A stretch of 64,000 bases of DNA from Gammaproteobacteria bacterium. GTDB lineage: Bacteria > Pseudomonadota > Gammaproteobacteria > Natronospirales > JAJUFS01. Location: the NCBI GenBank assembly GCA_036381715.1, contig DASVCH010000122.1, positions 4 to 64,003 on the forward strand, given 5' to 3'. The first letter of the stretch is position 1. Every line of letters begins with the position of its first letter. Under the pieces are notes generated by a model. The model had not been told where the DNA came from. It saw only the letters and a list, made by a program, of their open reading frames with translations, and searched no databases. A program made the position numbers and the translations under genes. Of the stretch, positions 6,315 to 49,731 are shown piece after piece.

Positions 6315-9300
6315 TCACGCCGCCGCGGTTTCGGCGGGCGCAAGCCGGTCGAGCAGCGCGTGCACGAACGCGAAGCGCTCGGCGGGTTCGTCAAGCTCCG
6401 CGAGGAAGCGCAGCTTCTCCTGGCCGTCGAGCTTGTAGCGGCGGCTTTCGCGCTGGATCAGGTTGATGATCGCCATCGGGTCCACGGAGGGTTTCGCGTT
6501 GAACACGAGCCGTCCCCCGGACGGACCGGCCTCGATCTTGCGGATGCCGAGCGGCGCGGCTTTCAGGCGCAGTTCCGCGAGGCGGAAAAGATTCTTCGCG
6601 GGCTCGGGCAGCAGCCCGAAGCGGTCGATCATTTCCACCTGCAACTCATCCAGCGTCGCGCGATCCGCCGCCGAGGCGATGCGCTTGTACAGCACGAGGC
6701 GCATGTGCACGTCCGGCATGTAATCGGCGGGCAGCAGCGCGGGAACCTTCAGCTCGATTTCCGGCCCGTGATCCAGCGGCCGGTCGAGGTCCGGCACTTC
6801 GCCTTTCTTCAGCGCCTCGACCGCGCGTTCCAGCAGTTCGCTGTACAAGGTGAAACCGACTTCCTGGATCTGCCCGGACTGCTCCTCGCCCAAAAGCTCG
6901 CCCGCGCCGCGGATTTCGAGATCGTGCGTCGCGAGCGTGAAACCTGCGCCAAGGTCTTCCAGCGATTCGATCGCTTCCAGGCGCTTCACGGCGTCCGCGG
7001 TCATCGCGGCCTTTGGCGGCGTCAGCAAATAGGCGTAGGCGCGATGATGCGAACGGCCGACGCGCCCGCGCATCTGGTGCAGCTGCGCGAGCCCGAACCT
7101 GTCGGCGCGATGAATGATGATGGTGTTCGCGCTCGGCACGTCGATGCCGGACTCGATGATGGTCGTGCACAGCAGCACGTTGAAGCGCCGGTGATAGAAA
7201 TCCAGCATCACCTGTTCCAGCTCGCGCTCGTGCATCTGGCCGTGCGCGATGCGCACCTCGGCGTCCGGTACCAGCGCTTCGATCTGCAGCTTGAACTTTT
7301 CGATGGTCTGCACTTCGTTGTGCACGAAATACACCTGGCCGCCGCGCTTGATTTCGCGCAGGATCGCTTCCTGGATCAGCGCGTCGTTCCATTCCGAGAC
7401 GAAGGTCTTCACCGACAGGCGCTCTTCCGGCGGCGTCGCGATGATGGAAAGATCGCGGATGCCGGCGAGCGACATGTTGAGCGTTCTTGGAATCGGCGTC
7501 GCGGTGAGCGTGAGCACGTCGACTTCCGCGCGCAGTTTCTTCAGCTGTTCCTTGTGGCGCACGCCGAAACGCTGTTCCTCGTCGACAATGACAAGGCCAA
7601 GGTCCGCGAACTTCACCTTGTTCGACAGCAATCCGTGCGTGCCGACGACGATATCGACCTTGCCGTTTTCAAGACCCTGCAGGATTTCCGCCTGCTGCTT
7701 GCCGGTGCGAAAGCGCGACAGCGCCTCGATCTTCACCGGCCAGTCCGCGAAGCGGTCGCGGAAGGTCTGGTAATGCTGCTGCGCGAGCAGGGTGGTCGGC
7801 ACCAGCACCGCGACCTGCTTGCCGGCCTGCACAGCGACGAAGGCCGCGCGCAATGCGACTTCGGTCTTGCCGAAGCCGACGTCGCCGCAGACCACGCGGT
7901 CCATCGGCTGTTTTTGCGCCAGGTCGGCAACAACGGACGCGATGGCCGTTTCCTGGTCGGCGGTTTCCTCGAAGGGAAAGTCGTTCGCGAACTTTTCGTA
8001 GTCTTCCTCGCTGATGCGAAAGGCGTGGCCTTCGCGTGCGGCGCGGCGCGCGTAGATGTCCAGCAGTTCCGCCGCCGCGTCGCGCGCCTTTTCCGCCGCG
8101 CGGCGCTTCGCCTTGCTCCATTGTTCCGAACCGAGGCGATGCACCGGCGCGTGTTCCGGCGAGGTGCCGGTGTAACGCGAAATGAGATGCAGCGATTGCA
8201 CCGGCACGTACAGCTTGTCGCCGCCGGCGTATTCCAGCGTCAGGAACTCCGCGGACTGCCCGCCGACATCCAGCGTCTTCAAGCCGCGGTAACGGCCGAC
8301 GCCGTGTTCCTCGTGCACCACCGGCGCGCCTTCGGAAAGATCGGTGAGGTCGCGGATGATGGCGGCGGGATCGCGCGCGGCGCGCCGCCGGGCACGCGTC
8401 TTCGCGCGCTCGCCGAACACCTGCGGTTCCGAGATGACCGTGATGCCCTGCTGCGGAAGATGAATGCCTTCCTGCAGCGGCGCGACGCAGACGTTCAGCT
8501 TTTCATGGCCGTCGAGAAATTCCTGCCAGCTTTCGAGCGTCTTCGGTTCAAGCTTGCGCTTGCGCAACAGTTCCAGCAGCGTCTCGCGCCGGCCGGTGGA
8601 TTCGGCCACGAACAAGGCGCGGCCCGTGTAACGTTCCAGGAAATCCAGCAGCACGCGTGCCGGCTCTTCCAGGCGGCTGTTGAGACGCAGCTCCGGCGGC
8701 TGCACGCTGCCAAGATTCTTTCCGTCCTCCGTCAGCTCGAAAGACTGGATGCGCACGCGCGGATGCAGTTCGATCGCCGAGCGGATTTCTTCCGGCGCGA
8801 ACGCGATTTCCGCGGGCGCAAGCAATGGCCGCTCGATGTCGCCGCGCCGCTGCTCGAAGCGATCCTCGATCTGCGTCCGTGCGTCCTCGAACGCATCCGC
8901 GACGGTGTCGAACTCGCAGATGACCGTGTTCTTCGGCAGGTAATCGAACAGCGAGGACGTCTGCTCGAAAAACAGCGGCAGGTAATACTCGATGCCGGCG
9001 GGCGCGATGCCGTCGGAAACGGACTTGTAGATCTGGCTGCGTGCGGGATCGCCCTCGAAGCGCGCGCGATAGCGCGTACGGAAATCGCGGATCGCGTCCT
9101 TGTGCAACGGAAACTCGCGCGCGGGCAGCAGGCGGATGTTGTCGAGCTTTTCCTTCGAGAGTTGCGTCTCCGGATCGAAACTGCGGATGCTGTCGATCTC
9201 GTCGTCGAAAAGATCAATTCGAAACGGCAGCGGCGAGCCCATCGGGAAAATGTCGATCAGCGAGCCGCGCACCGCGAACTCGCCGTGCTCCATCACCTGC

Positions 9301-9770
9301 GAAACGCGCGCGTACCCCGAATTCTCCAGGCGCAACGACAGCGCCTCCACGTCGAGCTGCTCGCCAACGTCCATCACGAAGCTCGCGCCATCCAGCCAGC
9401 TTCGCGGCGCAAGCCGGTTCAGCAGCGCGCCCGCCGTGGCGACCACGACACCGCGCTTCATGCCTTCGAGACGATTCAGTGTCGCGAGTCTCCGCGAGAC
9501 GATGTCCTGGTGCGGAGAAAAGACGTCATACGGCAGCGTCTCCCAGTCCGGGAACGGAAACACCGGCAGGTTCGCGCCTTCGAGCAGGAACGCGAGCTCC
9601 GCTTCCAGCCGCTCCGCCGACTGCGCGCCGGAACAGATCACCAGCAGCGGACGCTCGTCTCGTTGCGCCGCCTCGGCGATCGCCAACGCGGGCGCGGCGC
9701 CATACAACTGGCCCCAGCGCGTCGCCTGGCCGTTCGCGGGGAGTTCGGGTTTCAGCAGTTTTTTCGTCAT
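6315..9770 (-). CDS. mfd: transcription-repair coupling factor
   Basis: GDVGFGKTEVA, DEEQRFGV, TATPIPRT, QLHQMRGRVGR, plus UvrB-homology and CarD-like regions. ORF trimmed to MTKKLLKPELP (ATG 9770). Confidence 0.97.
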   Translation of the reverse strand: MTKKLLKPELPANGQATRWGQLYGAAPALAIAEAAQRDERPLLVICSGAQSAERLEAELAFLLEGANLPVFPFPDWETLPYDVFSPHQDIVSRRLATLNRLEGMKRGVVVATAGALLNRLAPRSWLDGASFVMDVGEQLDVEALSLRLENSGYARVSQVMEHGEFAVRGSLIDIFPMGSPLPFRIDLFDDEIDSIRSFDPETQLSKEKLDNIRLLPAREFPLHKDAIRDFRTRYRARFEGDPARSQIYKSVSDGIAPAGIEYYLPLFFEQTSSLFDYLPKNTVICEFDTVADAFEDARTQIEDRFEQRRGDIERPLLAPAEIAFAPEEIRSAIELHPRVRIQSFELTEDGKNLGSVQPPELRLNSRLEEPARVLLDFLERYTGRALFVAESTGRRETLLELLRKRKLEPKTLESWQEFLDGHEKLNVCVAPLQEGIHLPQQGITVISEPQVFGERAKTRARRRAARDPAAIIRDLTDLSEGAPVVHEEHGVGRYRGLKTLDVGGQSAEFLTLEYAGGDKLYVPVQSLHLISRYTGTSPEHAPVHRLGSEQWSKAKRRAAEKARDAAAELLDIYARRAAREGHAFRISEEDYEKFANDFPFEETADQETAIASVVADLAQKQPMDRVVCGDVGFGKTEVALRAAFVAVQAGKQVAVLVPTTLLAQQHYQTFRDRFADWPVKIEALSRFRTGKQQAEILQGLENGKVDIVVGTHGLLSNKVKFADLGLVIVDEEQRFGVRHKEQLKKLRAEVDVLTLTATPIPRTLNMSLAGIRDLSIIATPPEERLSVKTFVSEWNDALIQEAILREIKRGGQVYFVHNEVQTIEKFKLQIEALVPDAEVRIAHGQMHERELEQVMLDFYHRRFNVLLCTTIIESGIDVPSANTIIIHRADRFGLAQLHQMRGRVGRSHHRAYAYLLTPPKAAMTADAVKRLEAIESLEDLGAGFTLATHDLEIRGAGELLGEEQSGQIQEVGFTLYSELLERAVEALKKGEVPDLDRPLDHGPEIELKVPALLPADYMPDVHMRLVLYKRIASAADRATLDELQVEMIDRFGLLPEPAKNLFRLAELRLKAAPLGIRKIEAGPSGGRLVFNAKPSVDPMAIINLIQRESRRYKLDGQEKLRFLAELDEPAERFAFVHALLDRLAPAETAAA

Positions 9771-9954
9771 GAATACAACGTGTTGAATGAACCGGGAATC
9801 CGGTGAACGCAAAAATCCGCTCCCGGAGGCCGGGCGCGGTGCGAGGCGCGATTATACCTGCTCACGGGAGGATGGTCAGGGGTTGCGGAGTTAGTTGGGA
9901 TGTCGGATAACCGGCACAGGGGGTGAATCCTGGGCAAACGAGAGAGACATTCTT

Positions 9955-10473
9955 ATGAGCGAATCAAACGAAGAAGTGGGTCAGCGTATTCAAGAGAAAT
10001 TCCAGTTCTATCTGTTAGGATTGACCTTCACATTGCTTGGTCTATCGGTACAGACCGCAAATTTCGGTGAGTCATTTGTGGCGGGCATTCTTGAACTTAG
10101 CGCTTGGACGCTGTTGTTCATTTCTGCTCTTGCACAAGCTTACAATCTTGAAAGAGCCCCGCATATTTACAAGCTCTTCGATGTGCATAACAACGTTAAA
10201 CAAGATCAGAAGGAATTCCAGGATTTGAAAATGAAAGGAACTTCGAGTGTGACTGTGAGGCAGACGCGCGAAATAATGGATATTGATGAAGTGATACGAA
10301 ACGTGACTACAAAAGTCAGTGCAGTCGATGCCGCAGTCAAAAGTCTAGAGGAAAAAATTCATATATCGTATCGAATTCACCGATACGGATTTGTTGTTGG
10401 CGTGGCTATGCTGCTTCTTGCGCGAGCTTGGATTCCGGCTCAAGAGATATTTTTATATCTACTTCGCGGCTAG
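9955..10473 (+). CDS. hypothetical membrane protein: 2 N-terminal TM helices, a charged helical segment, then 1 C-terminal TM helix
   Basis: ORF 9895..10473 trimmed to ATG 9955 (MSESNEEVGQ). Hydrophobic stretches are FYLLGLTFTLLGLSV, FVAGILELSAWTLLFISALAQA and YGFVVGVAMLLLARAWI. AT-rich codon usage unlike its neighbours. Confidence 0.6.
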   Translation: MSESNEEVGQRIQEKFQFYLLGLTFTLLGLSVQTANFGESFVAGILELSAWTLLFISALAQAYNLERAPHIYKLFDVHNNVKQDQKEFQDLKMKGTSSVTVRQTREIMDIDEVIRNVTTKVSAVDAAVKSLEEKIHISYRIHRYGFVVGVAMLLLARAWIPAQEIFLYLLRG

Positions 10474-10591
10474 AGCAGATCGGGTGATAGCAACGGTTTG
10501 CCATTTTTTCGATTTTCGGTGGATTATGCTTGCGCTTATCTACCCTGGGCTCCCTAGATTTATCCTTCTGGAACGACCTAACGTGAAAGCG

Positions 10592-11002
10592 ATGAACAGG
10601 CTGATTGCTCTACGTAAACACTGGCTTACCATGAATGCTGTCGGTGATTTTTCTGGCAGCAACATAGATACTGCAGCATCACCCTTTTTTCTATTACAAG
10701 ATGGAAGCAACTTCGATGAGCGATTTCTTCGCCTGAGTGTTTGGTTAGGTCTGCTGTTTGTAGTCGTCGAAGGATATCTTGAACTTAAATTGAACGACGC
10801 AAGAATCGACGCGTTCCTTGCGCACAAAAATCGCGTCGGCGAACTACGGCTTTTCCGGAACTGTATTTTCCATTATCAGAAAGACGTCCAAGACCCACGT
10901 CTGCAGAAGTTCCTCGGTCGCGAAGCTTGTATGGGCTGGGCGCACGAACTGAGCCGCGCTATTGGACAATTGCTTGAGCGGGAACTTCAGCGATATAGGT
11001 AG
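10592..11002 (+). CDS. hypothetical small protein with a HEPN-like R-N-x3-H motif
   Basis: ORF 10391..11002; starts are possible at 10526 or 10592 (MNRLIALRKHW). LFRNCIFHYQ at codons 10856-10873 fits the HEPN Rx4-6H signature, placed before the last predicted helix of a helical domain of about 136 aa. Confidence 0.5.
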   Translation: MNRLIALRKHWLTMNAVGDFSGSNIDTAASPFFLLQDGSNFDERFLRLSVWLGLLFVVVEGYLELKLNDARIDAFLAHKNRVGELRLFRNCIFHYQKDVQDPRLQKFLGREACMGWAHELSRAIGQLLERELQRYR

Positions 11003-11023
11003 GACCTACGGCTGCCAGTCGCT

Positions 11024-11236
11024 TTATCTCGAATACAACTCTCTGATTTCAACTCGTAATGCCTTCGCCAGTAAAGCGACTTCATCATCCGTTACGCGTC
11101 TTACCTGCGATTCGATCTTTGCCAGCGTTCCTCTCGTGATTTCCCACTTGAGCAGATTGCAGCGCGCGACGAGATCGCCTTGGGTCAATCCCTGCGTTTC
11201 CCGGATTTTTCTGACTTGCGGTCCGACAACGTTCAT
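11024..11236 (-). CDS. XRE-family helix-turn-helix transcriptional regulator
   Basis: MNVVGPQVRKIRETQGLTQGDLVARCNLLKWEITRGTLAKIESQVRRVTDDEVALLAKAL is a classic HTH_3 pattern. ORF 11024..11308 trimmed to ATG 11236. Confidence 0.85.
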   Translation of the reverse strand: MNVVGPQVRKIRETQGLTQGDLVARCNLLKWEITRGTLAKIESQVRRVTDDEVALLAKALRVEIRELYSR

Positions 11237-11244
11237 GAACGATT

Positions 11245-11260
11245 GCTCCGATTTCGGAGC
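11245..11260. promoter_or_regulatory. 16-bp palindromic operator candidate, GCTCCGA-TT-TCGGAGC
   Basis: 7-bp perfect inverted arms. Located 9 nt upstream of the XRE start codon, abutting a TTGATT -35-like hexamer for the divergent symE-like gene. Confidence 0.6.
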
Positions 11261-11290
11261 TTGATTTTGTCGTTTCAAATCCGCCAGAAT

Positions 11291-11306
11291 GCTCCGATAT
11301 CGGAGC
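11291..11306. promoter_or_regulatory. 16-bp perfect palindrome, GCTCCGATATCGGAGC (second operator candidate)
   Basis: Same 7-bp arms as 11245-11260, with centres 46 bp apart. Lies directly after a CAGAAT -10-like hexamer and 14 nt before the symE-like ATG. Confidence 0.6.
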
Positions 11307-11319
11307 AAAGAGTTTTAGG

Positions 11320-11574
11320 ATGCAATCAAAACGGAAATTAAAGGTCAGACGGGCGTTTTCGGCCAAGGTGCGGCCGTCCGTTCAGTTGTCGGGCAAGTGG
11401 CTTGAGCGTGCAGGTTTCCAGGTCGGACAACCGATCGAGGTGTTGGTTCGGAAGCAGCGGCTACTGGTTCGGATTGCCGCGCCGGAAAGAAATGACGGGG
11501 GATCCGAATCCAATCTGCGGAAACTGGATTCGCCGGGTACGGCGAATGACGGCAACCTGCGTCTGAAGAGGTAG
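11320..11574 (+). CDS. SymE-like / AbrB-fold (SpoVT-AbrB) small protein
   Basis: VQLSGKWLERAGFQVGQPIEVLVRKQRLLVRI matches the SymE core pattern (L-x-G-x-W-L-E-x-A-G-F-x-x-G-x-x-V-x-V). Confidence 0.6.
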   Translation: MQSKRKLKVRRAFSAKVRPSVQLSGKWLERAGFQVGQPIEVLVRKQRLLVRIAAPERNDGGSESNLRKLDSPGTANDGNLRLKR

Positions 11575-11581
11575 CAAATCC

Positions 11582-11776
11582 ATGCAATACACAATCATCG
11601 TTGAACAGGGTGCGGAAAGCTGGGGTGCTTACGTTCCAGACTTGCCGGGATGCATTGCAGTTGGCGAAAGCCGGGCAGAAGTGCTGAGCCTCATCCATGA
11701 AGCGATGGAATTCCACCTGGAAGGCTTGAGAGACGCGGGCGAACCGGTTCCGAAATCAGATTCCTTCAGCGCGTAG
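11582..11776 (+). CDS. HicB-family (UPF0150) antitoxin-like protein with no DNA-binding extension
   Basis: MQYTIIVEQGAESWGAYVPDLPGCIAVGESRAEVLSLIHEAMEFHLEGLRDAGEPVP is the typical HicB N-terminal domain. The gene starts 7 nt after the symE-like stop and has a GAAGAGG RBS. Confidence 0.8.
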   Translation: MQYTIIVEQGAESWGAYVPDLPGCIAVGESRAEVLSLIHEAMEFHLEGLRDAGEPVPKSDSFSA

Positions 11777-11880
11777 GTTGGGGTGAATGGACGCGGTCCC
11801 GGTACTCCGGGAGCGAACCCCAACACGAACAAGCTGCGGGTCCATGTTTGTTGGGGTTCGCGCTGCTCACCCCAACCTAC
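11773..11880. repeat. Nested palindromic element built on four GTTGGGG/CCCCAAC cores
   Basis: Outer perfect 14-bp inverted repeat: GTAGGTTGGGGTGA (11773-11786) and TCACCCCAACCTAC (11867-11880). Inner perfect 13-bp inverted repeat: GCGAACCCCAACA (11813-11825) and TGTTGGGGTTCGC (11849-11861). Confidence 0.9.
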
Positions 11881-11886
11881 AGGGAA

Positions 11887-11932
11887 ATCCTGTTAATCCT
11901 GAAAAATCCTGTGAATCCTGTCCATTGCTTTT
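11887..11932. repeat. 46-bp REP-like element containing four spaced AATCCTG units (copy 1)
   Basis: ATCCTGTTAATCCTGAAAAATCCTGTGAATCCTGTCCATTGCTTTT. The reverse complement of 52500-52545 matches it with 3 mismatches. Confidence 0.9.
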
Positions 11933-11938
11933 GCTGTT

Positions 11939-13798
11939 CTACCCGTTACTCACCCGCAACCGCATGTCCGTCACCGCCTGGTGATGCACCAGCGCGGGAT
12001 GCTCCTTGATCCAGTCGGCGAGTTGTTCGCGCGCGTAGCGGTAGCCGATTTCCACGAGTTCGTCGAAGCGGTCCCACGCGAGCAGGTCGAAGCCGCCGAT
12101 GGGCGGATTGAGGTACAGGTCGGCCGCCGCTTTCGCGGCTTCGAGTTCGCGCCGGCTGGAGAGCATGGTCGCTTTCAATGCAACACGATGCACGATGGGC
12201 GCGGGATATGGATCCTGCTGGTAGTCGCTGTAGTTCCGGATGTATTCCCAGGCGCCGGGCAGCGCATCGCGGGTGTAGATCATGTCGTCTTCGGCGGTGA
12301 GGTCCGCGGCGATGACGAGTCCGTTGCATTGCCGGCGCATGACTTCGACCGGCAGGTTGTCGAGGATGCCGCCGTCGATGAGCAGTTCGCCGTTCTCGAT
12401 CGCCGGCGGGAAGATGCCCGGCAGCGATGCGCTGGCGCGCTGCGCTTTCCACATCGGGCCGGTGCGGTGCACGTGCTCGCAGTTTTTTGAAATGTTGCTC
12501 GAAACGGCGAAGTAGCGCAGCCACAGGTCCGGAATTTCGATCTCGCCGAAATGCTTTCTCAGGCCCTGTTCCATGCGCTCGCCCTGCAGCAGGCCCATCA
12601 CCGGCAGCGTGTAGTCGCTCATCGGACGTTCGGACACGAATGCCTGCCGGTAGGCGCGCAGCATTTTCAGGTTGTCCCAGCCGAGCGCGACGCCGCCCGC
12701 GACGATCGCGCCGATGCTGGTGCCGCCGACCATGTCGACCGGAATGCCGGCTTCCCGAAGCGCGCGAATGACGCCGATGTGCGCGAAGCCGCGCGCGCCG
12801 CCACCGGCCAGCACGAGCCCGACGGCGTTGCCGGAAAGAAATCTTGCAAGGCGGAAGTAGCCGACGTCGCGTCCCTCGACGACGTGATGGTGCTCGGAAA
12901 CGCGAAGCGCGTTCAGCCAGTCGCTGGTGCCGGCGGGTGCGCGCGAGGCATCGGCGTGCAGCAGCACGAGCTCCGCCGGCGGCATGGCGGCGCCTTTCGG
13001 CAGGCGGGCGGCCAGTGCGTTCGCCGCGCGTTGCGGTTCGGAACCCGCGCGCGCGACCAGCAGTACGCGATCGGCGTACGTGAGACATTTCGCGGTCCAC
13101 GCCGTCGGCGCCGCATCCGCCTGCAGGACGGCGTAATCGTGGTCCGCCTCGACGGCGTCCAGGAATTGCTCGAGCTGGATGGCGGCGCCGTCAGCCTTGA
13201 TGCCCATGCCGGGGCCAAGCCGCGCGGCGGCGCTGCGGGGATCGACCAGTGCGGCCGTGCCGAAACGCAGCAGCGCGAGTTGCAGGCGCGAGGCGAAGGC
13301 GTAGGCGTCGACGTCCTCGTCCAGCGGCACCACGGCGACCAGGCCGAGGCGCGCATCGTCCGCGTGATCGCGTTGCTGGGTGCCGGCGAGACGCTCGATG
13401 ATGAAACGCGCCAGCGTGCGGCTCACCTGCGGATACCGTTCGGTCACCGCTTCGAAACGCGCCTGCGAGAGGTGCGCGAGCGTGCTGTCGCGCCGCGCGA
13501 CCACGGTGGCGCCGCGCTGGCCGCCGGTGAACAGCGCGATTTCACCCACCACGTCGCCCGGACCGAGATCGCCCACGTGCCGCTCGCCGCCGTTGCCGTC
13601 GTCGAGGTTCACCGCCAGCCGCCCGGTGAGCAGGATGTGCATGCCGTCGCCGGGCTCATACTGGCGATAGAGATTTTCGCCGCGTGCGATGTGAACGATT
13701 TCCAGTGCGTCTTCGATTTCGGCCATCAAGGCGTCGGAGGCATCGCCGAAGATCCGCACCGCCGCCTGGCGGAGCGCTTCCCGCGCGCGGGGGTTCAT
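11939..13798 (-). CDS. cyclic-nucleotide-binding domain / patatin-like phospholipase fusion (NTE-like architecture)
   Basis: N-terminal cNMP-binding signature GDVVGEIALFTGGQRGATVVA. Patatin motifs GLVLAGGGARGFAHIGV (oxyanion), GGTSIGA (G-x-S-x-G) and LIDGGILDNLP (catalytic Asp). Confidence 0.88.
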   Translation of the reverse strand: MNPRAREALRQAAVRIFGDASDALMAEIEDALEIVHIARGENLYRQYEPGDGMHILLTGRLAVNLDDGNGGERHVGDLGPGDVVGEIALFTGGQRGATVVARRDSTLAHLSQARFEAVTERYPQVSRTLARFIIERLAGTQQRDHADDARLGLVAVVPLDEDVDAYAFASRLQLALLRFGTAALVDPRSAAARLGPGMGIKADGAAIQLEQFLDAVEADHDYAVLQADAAPTAWTAKCLTYADRVLLVARAGSEPQRAANALAARLPKGAAMPPAELVLLHADASRAPAGTSDWLNALRVSEHHHVVEGRDVGYFRLARFLSGNAVGLVLAGGGARGFAHIGVIRALREAGIPVDMVGGTSIGAIVAGGVALGWDNLKMLRAYRQAFVSERPMSDYTLPVMGLLQGERMEQGLRKHFGEIEIPDLWLRYFAVSSNISKNCEHVHRTGPMWKAQRASASLPGIFPPAIENGELLIDGGILDNLPVEVMRRQCNGLVIAADLTAEDDMIYTRDALPGAWEYIRNYSDYQQDPYPAPIVHRVALKATMLSSRRELEAAKAAADLYLNPPIGGFDLLAWDRFDELVEIGYRYAREQLADWIKEHPALVHHQAVTDMRLRVSNG

Positions 13799-14982
13799 GG
13801 CAATTCCCCGGCAGTCTCCCTGCGCGGCTTCCCGTGCGCGTCTTTCGTCGTGGCAATTTCGCCCGATGACGCGCGACGCACGGCGTCCAGCGCGCCTTCA
13901 AGAATGCCGCCCCAGAGCTCGTAACTGAACCGCCGCGCGTGCATCAGTCCGCCAATGGCCGGACCGCGATGAATGGCGAACGCGAAGGGCAGGGCGACGC
14001 CGTCGTTGTGACGCTGCGATTCCGCGCGCTGCGTGGCGAATGCGCGCATCTCCCGGCCTGCCAACTCGGCGTCGGCGGATTTTTCCGGATCGGGCGCGCC
14101 CGCGGCGGCGAGCCAGGTTTCGCCGAAGACGCGCCAGGGCTCGAGGCCGTGACGCTGGGCGATCTCGTCGAAGGATTTGAGACAGTGGTTCAGTTCCGCC
14201 AGCACCGCGTTCGCGCCGTGAGCGGAAACAGCTTCATCGAGACCGCTGACGCGTGCCGCCAGCAAGGTCACTTCCCGGTACTCGCCCGGCGCCGGTTCGC
14301 GGCCGGCCTGCACGTCGTTCACCAGCGCGCCCGGCAGCAGCGCCCACAACAGGCCGTCGGACTTGCGCTTCTCGATTTCAAGATCGGCTTTCTGGCGGCG
14401 GACTTCATGACGGGATGCGCGCAGCAGCCGCGCGCGGCGGTTGGCGACGGAGGCGAACATGATGAAGTAGAAAAGCAGGAACACCGTGGCGACGATGTCC
14501 ATGATCACGAGATCGCCGGCGGGCGAGGGAATCCCCCAGGCCCACGCCGGCAGCGCGATGGCGAGCCCGCTGCTGGCCACGCACGCGGCCATGAGCCGGG
14601 CGCCGCCGAGCGCCATGCCGTTGGCGAGCGCGACGGTCAAAAGCGACAGCATCACGACGTCCGAGAACGCGACGATGTACACGCTGGAACCGAGGATGAA
14701 CGCGTCGACAAGAACGCTCGCGTACTCCAGGCGCTTGCGCGCTTCGATGCGCACGGAGAGGTAACGGGATACGTGGGGATAGATCAGCGCCAGGCCGAGC
14801 AGGAAAAGATGCCAGCCACGAACGCCGCCGAATTCGAACAGGTACAGCCCGCTGACCGCAATGCAGGTTCCCGTACCCAGCAGGCGCATGGGATACAGCG
14901 CCGATCCGAAGCTGCCGCGAGAAGGCAGCGGCGCGTTGCCGGCCTGATCGTTGTTCGCCGTCGAAACCGCTGTTGTCGCCAT
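13795..14982 (-). CDS. polytopic membrane protein with a C-terminal class III nucleotidyl-cyclase homology domain that appears catalytically degenerate
   Basis: About 6 TM helices (MASE2-like by eye), a coiled linker, then LLWALLPGALV...EVTLLAARVSGLD...RVFGETWLAAAGAP...AFAIHRGPAIGGL...YELWGGILEGALDAV. This aligns to the cyclase core but lacks the two metal Asp and the Asn/Arg pair. Its stop overlaps the patatin start (ATGA). An alternative start is at 15006. Confidence 0.7.
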   Translation of the reverse strand: MATTAVSTANNDQAGNAPLPSRGSFGSALYPMRLLGTGTCIAVSGLYLFEFGGVRGWHLFLLGLALIYPHVSRYLSVRIEARKRLEYASVLVDAFILGSSVYIVAFSDVVMLSLLTVALANGMALGGARLMAACVASSGLAIALPAWAWGIPSPAGDLVIMDIVATVFLLFYFIMFASVANRRARLLRASRHEVRRQKADLEIEKRKSDGLLWALLPGALVNDVQAGREPAPGEYREVTLLAARVSGLDEAVSAHGANAVLAELNHCLKSFDEIAQRHGLEPWRVFGETWLAAAGAPDPEKSADAELAGREMRAFATQRAESQRHNDGVALPFAFAIHRGPAIGGLMHARRFSYELWGGILEGALDAVRRASSGEIATTKDAHGKPRRETAGELP

Positions 14983-15060
14983 GATCACTCCCCCCTGGAG
15001 CAACAATTTTCCGACGGCAATATTACATATCTTGTTGACGCCTGCACCTTCTCCCGGTTC

Positions 15061-15088
15061 AAAAGAAAAGGCGGCCTTCGGCCGCCTT
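15061..15088 (-). terminator. rho-independent terminator after aguB
   Basis: On the minus strand: GGCGGCC-GAAG-GGCCGCC followed by TTTTCTTTT. Confidence 0.75.
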
Positions 15089-15108: not shown

Positions 15109-15996
15109 TCAATCCCGGTACCGCTTGATCATGTCGCCGTAGGCGTCAATCCGCCGGTCGCGCAAAAACGGCCAGATGCGGCGCACGTCTTCGGAACGCT
15201 TCATGTTCACGTCGGCAACAAGCACGGTCGCTTCATCGGTCGGCGCCTCGGCGAGGATCTCGCCCTGCGGCCCCGCGATGAAACTCGAACCCCAGAAGGT
15301 GATTCCCGACGTCACGCCGGAAGGATCGTCTTCATGGCCGACGCGGTTGCACGAAAGCACGGGCAGGCCGTTGGCAACGGCGTGTCCGCGCTGGCTGATG
15401 ATCCACGCATCGCGCTGCCGCGCCTGCTCGTCCTTCGCGTCTTCGTCCACCCAGCCGATGGCGGTGGGATATAAAAGGAGTTCGGCGCCGGCGAGCGCCA
15501 TGAGACGCGCGCCTTCCGGATACCACTGGTCCCAGCACACCAGCACGCCGAGCTTGCCGACAGAGGTCTGGATGGGCTCGAAGCCGAGATCGCCCGGCGT
15601 GAAATAGAACTTCTCGTAGTAGCCGGGATCGTCGGGAATGTGCATCTTGCGGTACTTGCCCGCGATGGTTCCGTCCTTCTCGAGCACGACGGCGGTGTTG
15701 TGATACAGCCCCGGCGCGCGGCGCTCGAACAATGATGCGACGATGACGACGCCAAGCGCTTTCGCAAGTTTTCCGAGCGCATCCGTGCTCGGTCCCGGAA
15801 TGGTTTCGGCGAGATCGAACACCGTGGTGTCTTCGGTCTGGCAGAAGTACGGGCCGAGGTGCAGTTCCTGCAGCAGCACCAGCTTCGCGCCTTTCGACGC
15901 CGCTTCGCGCACGCCGTCCATGCTCACGTTCAGGTTGTGTTCGCCGTCGTCGTTGCAGTGCTGCTGCACGAGGCCGACCTTCAATAGCTTGCTCAT
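15109..15996 (-). CDS. aguB: N-carbamoylputrescine amidase (CN-hydrolase)
   Basis: LKVGLVQQHC...LVLLQELH...VLVCWDQWYPE carries the Glu-Lys-Cys triad context. Paired with agmatine deiminase. ATG 15996 has a GAAGGTG RBS; GTG 16005 is an alternative start. Confidence 0.9.
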   Translation of the reverse strand: MSKLLKVGLVQQHCNDDGEHNLNVSMDGVREAASKGAKLVLLQELHLGPYFCQTEDTTVFDLAETIPGPSTDALGKLAKALGVVIVASLFERRAPGLYHNTAVVLEKDGTIAGKYRKMHIPDDPGYYEKFYFTPGDLGFEPIQTSVGKLGVLVCWDQWYPEGARLMALAGAELLLYPTAIGWVDEDAKDEQARQRDAWIISQRGHAVANGLPVLSCNRVGHEDDPSGVTSGITFWGSSFIAGPQGEILAEAPTDEATVLVADVNMKRSEDVRRIWPFLRDRRIDAYGDMIKRYRD

Positions 15997-15997
15997 G

Positions 15998-17041
15998 TCA
16001 TTCACCTTCTTTCAGCGCGACCGCGCCGACGGGAAGCTGCATGGTAATGCAGTGCAGGCTGCCGAAACCGCGGATGACGGGACGGCAGTCGATCATCACG
16101 ATGTCGCGGTTCGGAAACGCTTCGGCAAGCACTTCACGCGCTTTTTCATCCGCAGGATCATCGTATGACGGCGCGAGCACCGCGCCGTTGATGACGAGGA
16201 AGTTCGCATACGTCGCCGGCAGCCGCTGGCCGGTCACGGGATCGTGCTGCGCGCGCGGCCAGGGCAGGGCGAGCAGGGTGTAGGGTTTTCCCGCCGGCGT
16301 CGTGAAGGTTTCGAGTTCCTCGCGCATGGCGGCGAGATCGCCGTAATGCGAATCGCCGCGGTCGTCGCAGGCCTGGTAGACGATCGTTTCCGGTGTCGCG
16401 AAACGTGCCAGCGTGTCGATGTGGCTGTCGGTGTCGTCGCCTTCGAGATGACCGTGATCCAGCCACAGCACGCGATCGGCGCCGAGCCATTCCTGCAAGG
16501 CGTTTTCGATCGCGGCTTCGTCGAGTTGCGGGTTGCGTTCCGGCGAGAGCAGGCAGCGCCGCGTCGTCAGCAAGCTGCCGAGACCGTCGGTTTCCAGCGC
16601 GCCGCCCTCCATGACGAGATCGACGTGCGTCATCGGCGCGACGAAGGCCTTCGCGTCTTCAAGGTGGCGATTGATCGCGTCGTCATCTTCGGCCGGCCAC
16701 TTGTTGCCCCAGCCGTTGAAAACGAAATCGAGCAGTTCGAGTCCGCCGTTGCCGCTTGTTTCCACCGCGACCGGGCCGTGATCGCGCGCCCAGGTGTCGT
16801 TCGACGGCGCAAAACGGAAATGCAGGCGGGCGACGTCACCGCCGGCAGCGGCGATCAATTCGCGGATGCGTTCCGCGTGCGCTTCATCCTGCGCGACGAC
16901 GAGCAGGTTTTCGCGCAGCGAAATTTCGCGCGCGATGGCGCCGTAGGTGCGCTCGACGTCATCCAGCCAGCCCGACCAGTCGGTGCCGGCATGCGGCCAG
17001 GTCAGCATCACGCCCCATTGTTCGGTCCACTCGGGCAGCAT
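15998..17041 (-). CDS. aguA: agmatine deiminase
   Basis: MLPEWTEQWGVMLTWPH, DTWARDHGP, HIDTLARF and GSLHCITMQ (catalytic Cys). ORF 15998..17089 trimmed to ATG 17041. Confidence 0.9.
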   Translation of the reverse strand: MLPEWTEQWGVMLTWPHAGTDWSGWLDDVERTYGAIAREISLRENLLVVAQDEAHAERIRELIAAAGGDVARLHFRFAPSNDTWARDHGPVAVETSGNGGLELLDFVFNGWGNKWPAEDDDAINRHLEDAKAFVAPMTHVDLVMEGGALETDGLGSLLTTRRCLLSPERNPQLDEAAIENALQEWLGADRVLWLDHGHLEGDDTDSHIDTLARFATPETIVYQACDDRGDSHYGDLAAMREELETFTTPAGKPYTLLALPWPRAQHDPVTGQRLPATYANFLVINGAVLAPSYDDPADEKAREVLAEAFPNRDIVMIDCRPVIRGFGSLHCITMQLPVGAVALKEGE

Positions 17042-17193
17042 GCGGCGGTTCACGGCGATGTTCCTCGGAAATCCGGAAAAGGGGCGCAATTCTGCGGCAA
17101 ATGCGCAGGATAGGAAAGCAAGGAAGGCGTGGAAACCGGGGTTTCACCCCGGCAAAAGGAATGCGGACCGGTTCAAGCCGGTCCGCGAGAGTT

Positions 17194-17644: not shown

Positions 17645-18892
17645 ATGTTCAAGCCCTACGAACTCTACATCGGCCTCAGGTACCTGCGCGCCAAGCGGCG
17701 GAACCATTTCATTTCCGTCATTTCGCTGATTTCCATGCTCGGCATCGCGCTCGGCGTCACGGCCCTGATCACCGTGCTCTCCGTCATGAACGGTTTCGAG
17801 CTGGAGCTTCGCGACCGCATTCTCAGCATGACCTCGCACGCCACCGTGACCGGCGCCGGCGCCGAACTCACCGACTGGCGCGCCGTGGTCGAGCAGGCCG
17901 AACGGCATCCGGAAGTGCTCGGCGCCGCGCCGTATGTCGAGGCGGTCGGGATGCTGAGCAACGCGGGCCGCCTGTCGGGCGCGTCGGTGCGCGGCATTCT
18001 TCCGGAAGAGGAAGCGAAGGTCTCGCGAATCGGCGCCGCCATGGTGCGCGGCAGCCTGGACGATCTCGAAGACGGCGAATACAACATCGTGCTCGGCAGC
18101 CACCTCGCCTTGTCGCTCGGCGTGCAGGTCGGCGACAAGGTGGTGCTGCTGATTTCCGAGGGCAACGTCACGCCGGCGGGGATCGTGCCGCGCATGCGGC
18201 GCTTCACCGTCAGCGGCATCTTCGACGTGGGGATGTACGAATACGACAGCACGCTCGCGTTGATTCATCTTGACGATGCGCGGCGGCTTTTCAATCTCGA
18301 CGATGGCGTGACCGGCGTGCGCCTGCGGCTCGACGACATGTTCGAGGCGCGCCGCATCGTGAGCGAGCTGGTGAATCATCTCGACGGCATGTACTACCTC
18401 AGCGACTGGACGCGCCAGCACGAGAATTTCTTTCGCGCCATCGCAACGGAAAAGACCGTCATGTTCGTGATTCTCACGCTGATCGTCGCGGTCGCCGCGT
18501 TCAACATCATTTCGACCCTGGTCATGGTCGTGACGGACAAGCAGGCCGACATCGCGATCCTGCGCACGCTTGGCACGAAACCCCGTTCCGTCATGGCCAT
18601 GTTCATGGTGCAGGGCATGTTCATCGGCGTGCTCGGCACCGTGATCGGCGTCGTGCTCGGCGTGCTGCTGTCGCTGAACGTGGAGAACATCATTCCCGCG
18701 CTGGAAGGGCTGCTTCACGCCGACCTGCTGCCGGACGACGTGTATTACATCAGCGACCTGCCGTCCGAAATGAAACTCTCCGACGTGGTGGCCGTCGCCG
18801 TCACCGCTTTCTCCTTGTCCCTGCTCGCCGGCATCTATCCGGCGTGGCGCGCGGCGCGCGTGCAACCGGCGGAGGCGCTGCGTTATGAATGA
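17645..18892 (+). CDS. lipoprotein-releasing ABC transporter permease, LolC/LolE family
   Basis: [38 protein letters not shown], MacB-type periplasmic domain, C-terminal FtsX domain. Followed by lolD. Confidence 0.92.
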
Positions 18893-19577
18893 GGCGGTTC
18901 TTTCATGCACCGGCCTGCGCTGCACCTACCATGACGCCGGCCAGGCTGTGGAAGTGCTCAAGGGCGTGAGCTTCGAACTGCACAAGGGCGAGTGCGCGGC
19001 GATTGTCGGCGCGTCCGGCAGCGGCAAGAGCACCCTGCTGCACATGCTCGGCGGCCTTGACCGGCCGACCGGCGGCGAGGTGACGGTTGCCGGCCGCAAC
19101 ATGACGACGCTGTCCGATGCGCGCCGCGGCGAACTGCGCAACGAAGCCGTCGGTTTCGTCTACCAGTTTCATCATTTGCTGCCGGAGTTCACGGCGCTGG
19201 AAAACGTCGCCATGCCGCTGCTGGTCCGGCGCGCGAACGTGCGAGAAGCGGCGTCGCGCGCGCGCGAACTGCTGCACGCGGTCGGGCTGGAACATCGCCT
19301 GGAACACAAGCCGGGACAGCTTTCCGGCGGCGAACGCCAGCGCGCTGCCGTGGCGCGCGCAATGATCACGCAGCCCGCCGTGATTCTCGCCGACGAGCCG
19401 ACCGGCAATCTCGATTCGAAGAACGGCGGGCAGGTGTTCGAACTGCTGCTGAAACTGAATCGCGAACACGGCACCGCGCTGCTGGTGGTCACGCACGACC
19501 ATGAGCTTGCGGCGCGCATGGACCGCACGTGGACACTGGAAGACGGGCGGCTTTCCCCGTCTTCCATCCAGGGATAG
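18885..19577 (+). CDS. lolD: lipoprotein-releasing system ATP-binding protein
   Basis: Walker [13 protein letters not shown], signature LSGGERQR, Walker [12 protein letters not shown]. 8-nt overlap with the permease gene. Confidence 0.92.
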
Positions 19578-47259: not shown

Positions 47260-47466
47260 GGTTCCCCGGCGAATTCCTGTGTATCCCCCCCGGATACCTG
47301 AAGCGGCCACTTTGCCGCAGACGGGCATATCCTATTAATAAGTATCAACTGCGCCCGAAGCCTCACAGTTTACGGGTTTCAACTGTAACCGCTCAAGCGA
47401 GCCGGAAATCTACAGCATCCGCCCCATGCCGTCGATCGGCTACACTGCTTGTGCAGGCACGAAAAG

Positions 47467-49731
47467 ATGCCGGACAACGGACAAGCCACAAGGGGCGGGG
47501 CATTGCGGTTCAGATCCATCCTCATTCGCGCCGGCATCACGCTCGGCGTTCTCACCGTGTTTTTCCTGCACGTCTGGGAAATTCCCGAGATCCGCTTCAT
47601 CACGCAGCTCGAAAACATCGCCTACGACGCGCGAGTCCGGCTCACCATGCCGCGTACGCCAGGCCGCAATGTCGTCATTGTCGACATCGACGAGCGCTCC
47701 ATCGGCGTGGAAGGCCACTGGCCCTGGCCGCGCGATCGTCTCGCTCACCTGGCGGATCAGCTGTTCGAGCGATACGGGGTGCGCGCGCTGGGCTTCGACA
47801 TCAATTTTCCGGAAAGCGACCGCGACAGCGGTGCGGATATTCTGCAGCGGCTGGCCAACGATGAACTGTCCGAAAACGCCGCTTTCCTGCGGGCCTTTGA
47901 AAAACTGCAGCCGACCCTGCAGACCGACGCGCGGTTTGCCGATGCGCTCAAGGGGCGCAACGTCGTGCTGGGTTACGTGTTCCGCCAGGACGTGGTGCAA
48001 GGGCGTGACGCAGGGATCGGCGTGCTGCCGCCGCCGGCGCTTGCCAGGGACGAAGTCGCCGGCGCAATCGAGTTCATCGAGCCGCAGGGGTTTACCGGCA
48101 ACCTGCGCATCCTGCAGGAGGCTGCCGCGAATGGCGGGTTCTTCGATAATCCGACAGTCGATCAGGACGGAGTCTATCGCCGCGTGCCGGCGTTGCAAAT
48201 GTATGACGGCAACGTCTATGTCTCGCTTGGTGTGCAACTGGCGCGCGCGGTCAGCGGCTGGCCGGAACTGGAATTCGCCTGGACGCCGGGCCGGCCTTCG
48301 AATGATCCGAAGTATCTCGAATATCTGCAGATCGGCGACCTGCGCGTTCCGGTCGATCATGAGCTCGCCCTTTATGTGCCGTATCGCGGTCCTGCATTCA
48401 CGATTCCCTACGTTTCCGCAAGCGATGTAATGGCCGGCACCGCCGACCGGGAATTGCTGCGCGACAAGATTGTGCTCGTCGGCACCAGCGCGCCCGGTTT
48501 GTACGACATGCGCGTGACGCCGGTGAGCGAGGTGTTCGTCGGCGTGGAAGTGCACGCAAGCATCGTCGACGGCATCCTCTCCCAGCGCCTGAAATCGCAG
48601 CCTTATTACATTGAAGGCGCGCGTCTCTCCCTGCTGGTCCTGCTGGCCGTGCTGATGACGTTCGTCATGGCGCGCTGGTCAGTGGTGCCGTCGACGCTCG
48701 CAACCTTGCTGGTCGCCGCCGCGCTGATCGGCGGCAACCTGATCGCCTGGCAGCGTTACGACCTCATCGTGCCGCTCGCGCCGCCGCTCTTGTTCGTATT
48801 TATCGTATTCGTGTTGCAGGTTCTTTACGGCCTGCTGATCGAAAGCCGCGGCAAGCGGCACCTGTCGCAGATGTTCGGCCAGTACATTCCGCCCGAACTG
48901 GTCGAGGAAATGGATCGCAACCGGCAGACCGTGTCGCTGGAAGGCGAAAGCCGCGAAATGAGCGTGCTGTTTTCCGACGTGCGCGGTTTCACCGGCGTGT
49001 CGGAAGGACTCGATCCGAAACAGCTGGCGCAGCTGATGAACGAATTCCTCACCCCGTTGACCCGCGCGATTCACGAACGCCGCGGCACCATCGACAAGTA
49101 CATGGGCGACGCGGTGATGGCCTTCTGGGGCGCGCCGTTGCCGGACGCCGAACATGCGTCGCACGCCGTCGCCGCCGCGCTGGACATGGTCGGCGTCATG
49201 CGCGGGCTCGGGTCGGAGTTCAGGGCGAAGGGCTGGCCGGCGCTGCAGGTCGGCATCGGCGTGAACACCGGACCGATGAACGTCGGCAACATGGGCTCGG
49301 AATTTCGCATGGCGTACACGGTGATGGGCGACGCCGTGAACCTGGGCTCGCGCCTGGAAGCCCTGACACGCACCTACGCGGTCGACATTATCGTTTCGGA
49401 GAGCACGCGCGACGCCGCACCGGAATTCGCGTACCTTGAACTCGACCGGGTGCAGGTCAAGGGCAAGGCTGAAGCGGTCACCATTTTCGAGCCGCTGGGT
49501 CTGCGCGACACGCTGCCGAAGGATTCGAAACAGTTGCGCTCGCGGCACAAGCAGGCGCTGATGCTTTACCGGCAGCAGCAATGGGACGCGGCGGAACGCG
49601 AATTCTTCTCGCTCGCGCAATCGCATCCCGACAAGCCGCTGTACCGCCTGTATCTCGATCGCATTGCACACTTCCGCAACCATCCGCCGCCTGCGGGCTG
49701 GGACGGTGTTTTCACCTTTTCGACGAAGTAA
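47467..49731 (+). CDS. CHASE2-sensor class III adenylate/guanylate cyclase (catalytic residues intact)
   Basis: N-terminal TM helix, periplasmic CHASE2-type region (VVIVDIDERSI...WPWPR), three TM helices, then MSVLFSDVRGFT...YMGDAVMAFWGAP...IGVNTGPMNVGNMGS...YTVMGDAVNLGSRLE. Confidence 0.88.
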   Translation: MPDNGQATRGGALRFRSILIRAGITLGVLTVFFLHVWEIPEIRFITQLENIAYDARVRLTMPRTPGRNVVIVDIDERSIGVEGHWPWPRDRLAHLADQLFERYGVRALGFDINFPESDRDSGADILQRLANDELSENAAFLRAFEKLQPTLQTDARFADALKGRNVVLGYVFRQDVVQGRDAGIGVLPPPALARDEVAGAIEFIEPQGFTGNLRILQEAAANGGFFDNPTVDQDGVYRRVPALQMYDGNVYVSLGVQLARAVSGWPELEFAWTPGRPSNDPKYLEYLQIGDLRVPVDHELALYVPYRGPAFTIPYVSASDVMAGTADRELLRDKIVLVGTSAPGLYDMRVTPVSEVFVGVEVHASIVDGILSQRLKSQPYYIEGARLSLLVLLAVLMTFVMARWSVVPSTLATLLVAAALIGGNLIAWQRYDLIVPLAPPLLFVFIVFVLQVLYGLLIESRGKRHLSQMFGQYIPPELVEEMDRNRQTVSLEGESREMSVLFSDVRGFTGVSEGLDPKQLAQLMNEFLTPLTRAIHERRGTIDKYMGDAVMAFWGAPLPDAEHASHAVAAALDMVGVMRGLGSEFRAKGWPALQVGIGVNTGPMNVGNMGSEFRMAYTVMGDAVNLGSRLEALTRTYAVDIIVSESTRDAAPEFAYLELDRVQVKGKAEAVTIFEPLGLRDTLPKDSKQLRSRHKQALMLYRQQQWDAAEREFFSLAQSHPDKPLYRLYLDRIAHFRNHPPPAGWDGVFTFSTK

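Follow-up and report, generated by a model that had tools for sequence, protein, structure and literature searches.

A 64,000-nucleotide stretch of DNA from a Gammaproteobacteria bacterium (NCBI GenBank assembly GCA_036381715.1, contig DASVCH010000122.1, positions 4 to 64,003 of the forward strand; "the window" below) carries two overlapping genes which seem to make up a membrane-lipid regulatory module. The first, gene A, encodes a polytopic MASE2 membrane domain joined by a long helix to a class III cyclase-homology domain (CHD) in which all six canonical catalytic residues are replaced. The second, gene B, encodes a predicted (lyso)phospholipase of the NTE/PNPLA6 type whose effector motifs are intact and which also carries a domain for binding cyclic nucleotide monophosphates (cNMPs). 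The two genes are linked in distant lineages, and both are under purifying selection. We propose, with moderate confidence, that the gene A product is a membrane sensor pseudoenzyme which docks and gates the cNMP-responsive lipase made from gene B. An earlier note on this DNA, made by reading the sequence, had listed a membrane sensor or regulator with a non-catalytic CHD among its options, and this is the option favored here too. Both are genuine genes rather than chance open reading frames (ORFs), since they have homologues at E-values down to 1e-210 and ratios of non-synonymous to synonymous substitution (dN/dS) of 0.05-0.16, computed between the window and its closest relative, locus L005 (85% amino acid identity).

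The catalytic positions of gene A were taken from hidden Markov model (HMM) alignments, which were ungapped across the three catalytic motifs and agreed with MAFFT alignments. The earlier note had suggested by eye that one metal-binding Asp was replaced by Arg and the other by Glu, and that the transition-state Asn and Arg had become Glu and Asp. The alignments confirmed all four substitutions and showed that the substrate-defining Lys and Asp are lost as well, so that 0 of the 6 canonical residues remain. The closest solved relatives of the domain are mycobacterial domains of the Cya/Rv1625c type (PDB entries 5o5k, 7yz9, 4p2f and 7yzi, found with phmmer at E-values of 2e-18 to 6e-16). Thus the gene A domain has the sequence and fold of a class III cyclase, but it has no metal Asp pair, no Asn/Arg pair and no Lys/Asp (or Glu/Cys) pair. 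It is not expected to be a cyclase: judging from these residues it would make no cyclic nucleotide and would be a pseudoenzyme. The coordinates of these residues and of the other features discussed below are collected in the table.

Table. Features of the gene A/gene B pair and of the separate CHASE2 cyclase, in window coordinates.
Feature	Coordinates	Strand	Details and evidence
Gene A	13795..14982	minus	MASE2 membrane domain, transducer helix and degenerate class III CHD; 395 aa; ATG at 14982, TGA at 13795
Gene B	11939..13798	minus	cNMP-binding, NTE P-loop-like and patatin phospholipase domains; 619 aa; ATG at 13798
ATGA overlap of gene A TGA with gene B ATG	13795..13798	minus	Read from sequence
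MASE2 polytopic region	14413..14913	minus	Residues ~24-190, five to six predicted helices; Pfam and AlphaFold2; dN/dS 0.05
Juxtamembrane helix with motif like a cyclase transducer element, EIEKRKSDGLLWALLP (residues 202-217)	14308..14412	minus	dN/dS 0.06
Degenerate CHD	13813..14307	minus	Residues ~226-390; Pfam, phmmer against PDB, pLDDT ~80-96, dN/dS 0.16
Metal-binding Asp1 replaced by R244 (LAAR244 for FAD)	14251..14253	minus	HMM and MAFFT alignment
Substrate-defining Lys replaced by R284	14131..14133	minus	HMM and MAFFT alignment
Metal-binding Asp2 replaced by E288 (FGE288 for GD)	14119..14121	minus	HMM and MAFFT alignment
Substrate-defining Asp replaced by G359	13906..13908	minus	HMM and MAFFT alignment
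Transition-state Asn replaced by E362	13897..13899	minus	HMM and MAFFT alignment
Transition-state Arg replaced by D366	13885..13887	minus	HMM and MAFFT alignment
cNMP-binding domain	13364..13756	minus	Phosphate-binding cassette G85-E86...R95-G-A97-T98 at 13505-13546
NTE-family P-loop-like domain PF24179	12881..13339	minus	Pfam
Patatin catalytic domain	12299..12817	minus	Oxyanion GGGARG 332-337; Ser361 at 12716-12718; Asp475 at 12374-12376
Shine-Dalgarno-like GGGGGGAG	14988..14995	minus	5 nt spacing to ATG 14982; read from sequence
GC-rich hairpin and T-run, likely terminator of upstream CN_hydrolase gene	15068..15088	minus	Hairpin scan
CHASE2 class III cyclase with canonical catalytic set	47449..49731	plus	Pfam CHASE2 and Guanylate_cyc (76.8 bits); outside the operon

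The remainder of gene A has the layout of a working membrane cyclase. Pfam finds MASE2 at residues 38-121 (35.2 bits, cut-off 25) and Guanylate_cyc PF00211 at residues 242-390 (39.4 bits, cut-off 21.9), and with the alignments this bears out the earlier note's description of a polytopic membrane protein fused to a class III CHD without its catalytic set. The structure predicted by AlphaFold2 has helices at residues 24-51, 56-78, 82-104, 108-149 and 159-213. Its predicted local distance difference test score (pLDDT) is about 80-96 in the CHD and about 75 in the membrane part. Foldseek matches this model to many CHDs at probability 1.00, and its best match is the full-length Rv1625c/Cya structure 7yzk (E-value 3.5e-15, 378 aligned columns). 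Because the best full-length fold match is Rv1625c/Cya, gene A is modeled as half of a membrane adenylyl cyclase of the Rv1625c/CyaB type, with a polytopic domain, a long juxtamembrane helix and a CHD. The motif EIEKxKSDxLLxxLP before the CHD is invariant in the gene A family, and E202, E204, L211, L212 and P217 are invariant in the family and in the Rv1625c reference. The same plan is seen in Rv1625c/Cya of Mycobacterium tuberculosis and in each half of a mammalian membrane adenylyl cyclase (six transmembrane helices, a helical linker and a CHD); gene A differs from Rv1625c/Cya in having MASE2 as its membrane domain and in the replacement of the six catalytic residues. CyaB of Pseudomonas aeruginosa is a MASE2-containing adenylate cyclase, and adenylate cyclases of this kind also join MASE2 to a CHD, the comparison here being with the published description of CyaB.

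The loss of catalytic residues extends through the family. Relatives of gene A were gathered with word-indexed and exhaustive profile searches, which returned about 17 clusters at 50% identity before generic CHDs swamped the list, and the six positions were tabulated in 50 family members. The transition-state Asn is kept in only 1 of the 50 and the transition-state Arg in 7. The first metal Asp is kept in 28 (with Arg in 14), the second in 31 (with Glu in 13), the substrate Lys in 12 (with Arg in 35) and the substrate Asp in 23. By contrast, all six residues are kept in 10 canonical MASE2-CHD proteins from the same profile search (such as P0158, P0161, P0164, P0166, P0233 and P0245), save for a change of the substrate Asp to Asn in P0161; the linkage to an NTE-type lipase described below is specific to the degenerate family. 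The gammaproteobacterial clade which includes the window has Arg and Glu (R/E) at the two metal positions, while Desulfobacterota and Acidobacteriota members have D/D there and are without the Asn and Arg. Members of a Rhodocyclales type have E/R, although an indel makes the alignment of their first metal site uncertain (it is gapped in one alignment and E in another). One catalytic position is deleted in the alignment of L021 and L022, and in two betaproteobacterial proteins, L022:3733-5004 and L108:2359-3504, the CHD is so degenerate that Pfam reports MASE2 alone. Such a distribution is consistent with catalysis having been lost early, the Asn disappearing in essentially all members, and with the other positions having drifted afterwards in each lineage.

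The two former metal-Asp columns co-vary in charge, being R/E in the gammaproteobacterial clade, R/D in L020, and E/R in L021, L022 and L038. The reciprocal R/E and E/R pairs suggest a salt bridge which may have taken the place of the two-metal center. A motif in the alpha2 helix of the CHD, ELNHCFKAFD, was considered as a surface specific to the family, but it also occurs in canonical relatives and was dropped.

The domain does not seem to be on its way out. Gene A is under purifying selection along its whole length, with the dN/dS values listed in the table for MASE2, the transducer helix and the CHD. Low dN/dS, the invariant transducer motif and a CHD fold predicted at a pLDDT of about 90 together indicate that the gene A CHD is maintained and not decaying.

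Gene B keeps its functional motifs. Its three domains all score above their Pfam cut-offs: cNMP_binding at 72 bits, NTE_Ploop PF24179 at 82 bits (cut-off 27) and Patatin at 120 bits. The cyclic-nucleotide-binding (CNB) domain aligns best with the CNB-B domain of protein kinase A regulatory subunit RI-alpha, where the phosphate-binding cassette GEIALFTGGQRGATVVA of gene B stands against GEIALLMNRPRAATVVA, and among 36 gene B homologues the cassette residues G85, E86, R95 and A97 are invariant. The cassette fits the consensus G-E-x-A-L...R-x-A-[TS], and from its sequence the domain looks competent to bind a cNMP. The lipase motifs comprise the oxyanion loop given in the table, G-T-S361-I-G and D475-G-G; among the same 36 homologues G332-G334, G359-x-S361-x-G363 and D475-G476 are invariant. 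This agrees with the earlier note, which had described a cNMP-binding patatin lipase, translationally coupled to gene A, with an intact GxSxG serine and DGG aspartate. Gene B has a dN/dS of 0.08-0.12, and its AlphaFold2 model is compact (pLDDT 81.6, predicted TM score (pTM) 0.81).

By its domain architecture gene B is a predicted (lyso)phospholipase of the NTE/PNPLA6 type with an intact Ser-Asp dyad. More than 2,300 bacterial homologues have the same three-domain architecture; in JGI they are often called "NTE family protein/lysophospholipid hydrolase". Eukaryotic NTE/PNPLA6, Swiss-cheese and Nte1 likewise carry cNMP-binding, NTE P-loop-like and patatin domains and a Ser-Asp dyad in one chain, but gene B has one CNB domain instead of three and lacks a transmembrane anchor of its own: its compact alpha/beta model has no hydrophobic helix N-terminal to the CNB domain, and the only polytopic region of the pair is in gene A. 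The membrane component in the paired clade is a separate, co-translated pseudo-cyclase, a partner which most bacterial members of the lipase family are without.

The two genes stay together in distant relatives. At all 24 loci which have a gene A relative and readable flanks, a lipase gene lies immediately downstream on the same strand, at a spacing of -4 to about +120 nt. The earlier note's association of the two genes would have failed if relatives carried them unlinked, and none of the 24 did. The paired loci include L001-L011, L020-L022, L024, L026, L027, L038 and L106-L108. Gamma- and Betaproteobacteria, Desulfobacterota and Acidobacteriota are represented among them, with varying genes at the flanks. 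The 4-nt overlap is identical in L004, L005, L006, L022, L106 and L108. L001-L011 were found from the cyclase side, in two Gammaproteobacteria metagenome-assembled genomes, Thermodesulfobacteriota/Desulfobacterales and Acidobacteriota/Vicinamibacteria, and 11 of 11 have a gene B relative downstream at 46-89% identity, although a contig end truncates the lipase in three. From the lipase side, P0034, P0062 and P0073 have a MASE2 gene upstream at -4 to +2 nt, and P0154 stands between two lipases of this kind. No third conserved gene was found beside the pair across the loci compared, as the flanks differ.

The linkage belongs to one clade of lipases and not to lipases of this architecture in general. 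Across 80 metagenome loci of the wider lipase family the partner was found in 3 only, which hold the highest-scoring lipases, and 55 of 58 informative loci were unpaired; P0102, which represents a class of lipases of about 755 residues, has no MASE2 gene upstream. A general linkage of lipase and pseudo-cyclase was rejected on these counts. In a neighbor-joining tree of 104 lipases, however, 12 of 12 downstream-paired members fell into one clade which holds no confirmed-unpaired member. Three members of that clade whose pairing status had been unknown, P0051, P0081 and P0130, were then checked as a prospective test, and 3 of 3 were paired, two of them with a 4-nt overlap. The paired lipases are thus one clade inside a much larger, mostly unpaired NTE-like family.

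Some of the paired loci have a second paralogue with cNMP-binding, NTE and patatin domains beside the pair: L024:1667-3532 lies divergently upstream, and L106:5510-7741, a 743-residue form, lies downstream. The extra copy of L024 clusters with the unpaired clade.

In one lineage the pair has a recognizable physiological neighborhood. In the Rhodocyclales-type loci L022, L038 and L108 it sits between an XrtA/PEP-CTERM exopolysaccharide export gene (TIGR03027) on one side and, on the other, PrsK/PrsR and a gene for a large tetratricopeptide repeat protein; the PrsK/PrsR matches are strong (TIGR02916 at 848 bits, TIGR02915 at 753 bits), and 3 nt separate the lipase from PrsK. L021 has only the export gene in common with this setting next to its pair, and no XrtA/PEP-CTERM exopolysaccharide genes were found in the window. 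The arrangement suggests that in the Rhodocyclales-type lineage the pair may be co-regulated with exopolysaccharide and floc formation, which would give it a concrete physiological setting in one betaproteobacterial lineage.

Together these observations lead us to suspect the following mechanism. The MASE2 domain of gene A would sense the membrane, the helix-mediated transmission of the signal would be kept, and the CHD dimer would serve as a conformational output. That output would dock and gate the soluble lipase, which would be made stoichiometrically from the overlapping gene B. Since the phosphate-binding cassette is intact, a cyclic nucleotide would still be an input, and it would have to come from elsewhere, supplied by another cyclase in the cell such as the CHASE2 cyclase. 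Gene B would then integrate two inputs, an envelope or membrane signal arriving through MASE2 and the pseudo-CHD and a cytosolic cNMP arriving at its own CNB domain, and its output would be deacylation or remodeling of membrane phospholipids. A more tentative extension, which we regard as possible but somewhat doubtful, is that MASE2-pseudoCHD proteins are an ancient, multi-phylum family of pseudo-cyclases whose CHD dimer was repurposed as a protein-protein output, with the NTE-type lipase gated as an AND-gate of the MASE2/transducer signal and the cNMP.

Several points weigh against the sensor-pseudoenzyme proposal. The physical complex of the two proteins, the direction of regulation, the identity of the ligand and the physiological substrate are all things we infer. 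To our knowledge, it has yet to be proven that the CNB domains of mammalian NTE bind cAMP, and nothing in the window indicates a specific lipid or envelope pathway. Parts of the gene A family may also keep residual or unusual catalysis: Desulfobacterota and Acidobacteriota members have both metal Asp, and L026 and L027 lack the Asn only, with Lys in its place. In the window protein an Arg-Arg pair, R369/R370 (at about 13873-13878), lies one helical turn past the lost transition-state Arg, and a basic residue, Arg or Lys, is found in many members of the family at +10 counted from the substrate Asp; such a residue might partly substitute for the lost one.

The same residues can be read as those of an ordinary cyclase-effector pair, in which gene A would make a cNMP by way of non-canonical residues and activate the co-expressed lipase locally. 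A cyclase followed by a cNMP-binding effector is classical operon logic, in some members both metal Asp and the substrate Asp survive, as does even the Arg, and at two loci a related lipase is joined to a canonical cyclase: L053:5768-7942 and L104:5487-7643 encode a canonical CHASE2 cyclase directly downstream of a cNMP-NTE-patatin gene of the unpaired type. In the window protein, however, Arg and Glu stand in for the metal Asp, and the Lys, the Asp, the Asn and the Arg have been replaced too. Across the family the Asn is gone in 49 of 50 and the other positions drift freely among lineages, to the point of deletion in L021 and L022, which fits relaxed catalytic constraint, while canonical MASE2 cyclases retain the set, apart from P0161. 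We therefore consider an ordinary pair highly improbable and continue to favor a non-catalytic gene A.

If gene A makes no cyclic nucleotide, the window holds a candidate source of it for gene B 34 kb away. The earlier note had pointed to a CHASE2 cyclase elsewhere in the window, and it is real: it carries the canonical residues in the motifs FSDVRGFT, KYMGDAV and MGDAVNLGSRLE. The CHASE2 cyclases of L053 and L104 are 31.5% identical to it, and their position beside a lipase links the lipase family to real cyclases. A general linkage between these lipases and canonical CHASE2 cyclases was not accepted, as it was seen in L053 and L104 only.

The presence of a canonical cyclase in the same genome also allows the gene A product to be viewed as a regulatory or poison subunit, which would heterodimerize with a cyclase such as the CHASE2 protein and tune the cNMP read by the lipase. 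Class III CHDs work as dimers, and there are well-known pseudo-symmetric heterodimers in which one site is dead, such as mammalian C1/C2 and the alpha and beta subunits of soluble guanylyl cyclase. Such precedents lend the idea some weight, as do the family members with both metal Asp but without Asn and Arg, which resemble a C1-like half. The gene A protein of the window, however, lacks both half-sites, the metal Asp as well as Lys/Asp/Asn/Arg, so a heterodimer working by the established class III mechanism would contain two sites, neither of them complete. The earlier note's suggestion of a heterodimer with an active cyclase would thus not rescue catalysis and would leave gene A as a poison subunit at best. 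Furthermore, at none of the loci compared is another CHD gene conserved next to the pair, and the conserved partner is a lipase and not a cyclase. Gene A also falls in the Rv1625c-like group and has a membrane domain and a transducer helix of its own, which favors homodimers. A heterodimer is therefore very unlikely, and a gene A homodimer which acts on the lipase remains our preferred picture.

The earlier note had also compared the pair with the anti-phage systems CBASS (cyclic-oligonucleotide-based antiphage signaling system) and Pycsar (pyrimidine cyclase system for antiphage resistance). Under an abortive-infection scheme, the membrane pseudo-cyclase would sense infection or envelope damage and release a membrane-degrading patatin effector. 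CBASS and Pycsar do include patatin lipases and effectors with CNB domains. Here a potentially toxic lipase is tightly coupled to a partner, and the pair adjoins a small islet of low GC which contains XRE and SymE-like genes. Gene B also gives domain-level PADLOC matches, to the CNB domain of PycTIR (9e-15, residues 21-139) and to phospholipase effectors (6e-12), but gene A has no PADLOC match. The best NCBIfam match for gene B is RssA, while the model CBASS_lipase NF041079 reaches only 31.8 bits against a cut-off of 200, and the closest fold of its patatin domain is PlpD (30% identity, TM score 0.82), with CapV/CapE lower (18%, TM about 0.6; Foldseek E-value about 1e-12). CapV and CapE share the patatin fold and are activated by nucleotides, but CapV has no CNB domain. 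Pycsar likewise places a gene with a class III-type cyclase fold ahead of an effector whose N-terminal domain is a CNB domain, a similarity at the level of domains only; gene A matches no PycC model and is catalytically degenerate, and the effector is an NTE-type lipase.

The genomic context of the pair is not that of a mobile or defense island. No gene for a CD-NTase (cGAS/DncV-like nucleotidyltransferase) or PycC is adjacent to the pair, whose neighbors are CN_hydrolase, a PAD_porph-family deiminase, SymE-like and XRE genes. Across loci the neighbors are housekeeping or envelope genes (mfd, aguA/aguB, lolCD, der, a mur ligase and the XrtA/PEP-CTERM exopolysaccharide locus). The position of the pair is syntenic in the closest relative, L005, and divergence roughly follows taxonomy. 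A scan of viral contigs found no relatives of the pair, and tblastn against plasmids found no full-length relatives, only generic CHD matches with less than 50% query coverage. Altogether the CBASS/Pycsar framing is not supported for this pair; any regulated lipase could in principle act in abortive infection, but a role in defense is unlikely here. The pair also gives a caution for annotation, as relatives of gene A are named "adenylate/guanylate cyclase" and a quick reading of the domains could suggest CBASS- or Pycsar-like defense.

A membrane pseudoenzyme which gates an NTE-type lipase, if that is what the pair encodes, would be of interest for several reasons. Pseudoenzymes derived from kinases and phosphatases are well studied, and a conserved bacterial pseudo-cyclase with a fixed client would extend the list to the cyclase fold; among pseudoenzymes with that fold it would be the first to have a dedicated client which is not a cyclase. 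It would show what a transducer helix and a CHD dimer signal to without nucleotide synthesis. All of the domains are already known, and bacterial CNB-patatin "NTE-like" proteins have long been annotated. For the pair itself, the family-wide degeneracy of the MASE2-CHD proteins, the clade-defining lipase linkage and the XrtA/PEP-CTERM association, no description was found in the open-access literature, where absence is weak evidence. Eukaryotic NTE and SWS are membrane-anchored lysophospholipases/phospholipases whose CNB sites are needed for catalytic (phospholipase) function (PMC9025805; PMC12710771), and the pair would be a bacterial split version of such an enzyme on two polypeptides. The control of NTE/PNPLA6-type lipases by CNB domains, which is still an open question in the case of the human disease gene (PMC9025805, PMC12710771), could also be studied with it in a tractable bacterial system.

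Gene A and gene B are probably a transcription unit of their own, since a hairpin and T-run seem to end the CN_hydrolase gene upstream of them. The hairpin scan listed 15068-15088 on the plus strand, and the tail on the minus strand reads TTTTCTTTT. A scan for sigma-70 promoters gave no signal above chance. On one side of the pair in the window are polyamine genes at 15109-17089, a PAD_porph-type agmatine deiminase and a CN_hydrolase resembling N-carbamoylputrescine amidase, with ATP-binding cassette genes resembling lolC/lolD at 17645-19577. On the other side are a short low-GC stretch and then mfd at 6315-9812; the names mfd and lolCD were given from translations only.

The low-GC stretch at 9856-11900 (GC 0.46-0.54) consists of four small ORFs. 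Its GC content is 0.457 at 10001-11000 and 0.544 at 11001-12000, compared with about 0.65 elsewhere, and no tRNA was found when tRNA and integration signals were sought there. The plus-strand ORFs at 9895-10473 and 10391-11002 have no Pfam or PHROG match. A gene with an XRE-type helix-turn-helix at 11024-11308 on the minus strand is divergent from a SymE-toxin-like gene at 11320-11574 on the plus strand (PF08845, 44 bits). The earlier note had remarked that the operon abuts this islet; the adjacency is real, but it is probably incidental, because L005 differs in part of the islet yet retains the pair and its two flanks. L005 is colinear with the window at about 83% nucleotide identity over the pair and both flanks; only the part corresponding to 9856-11031 is replaced there by other sequence, and the XRE/SymE part is kept at 75% nucleotide identity.

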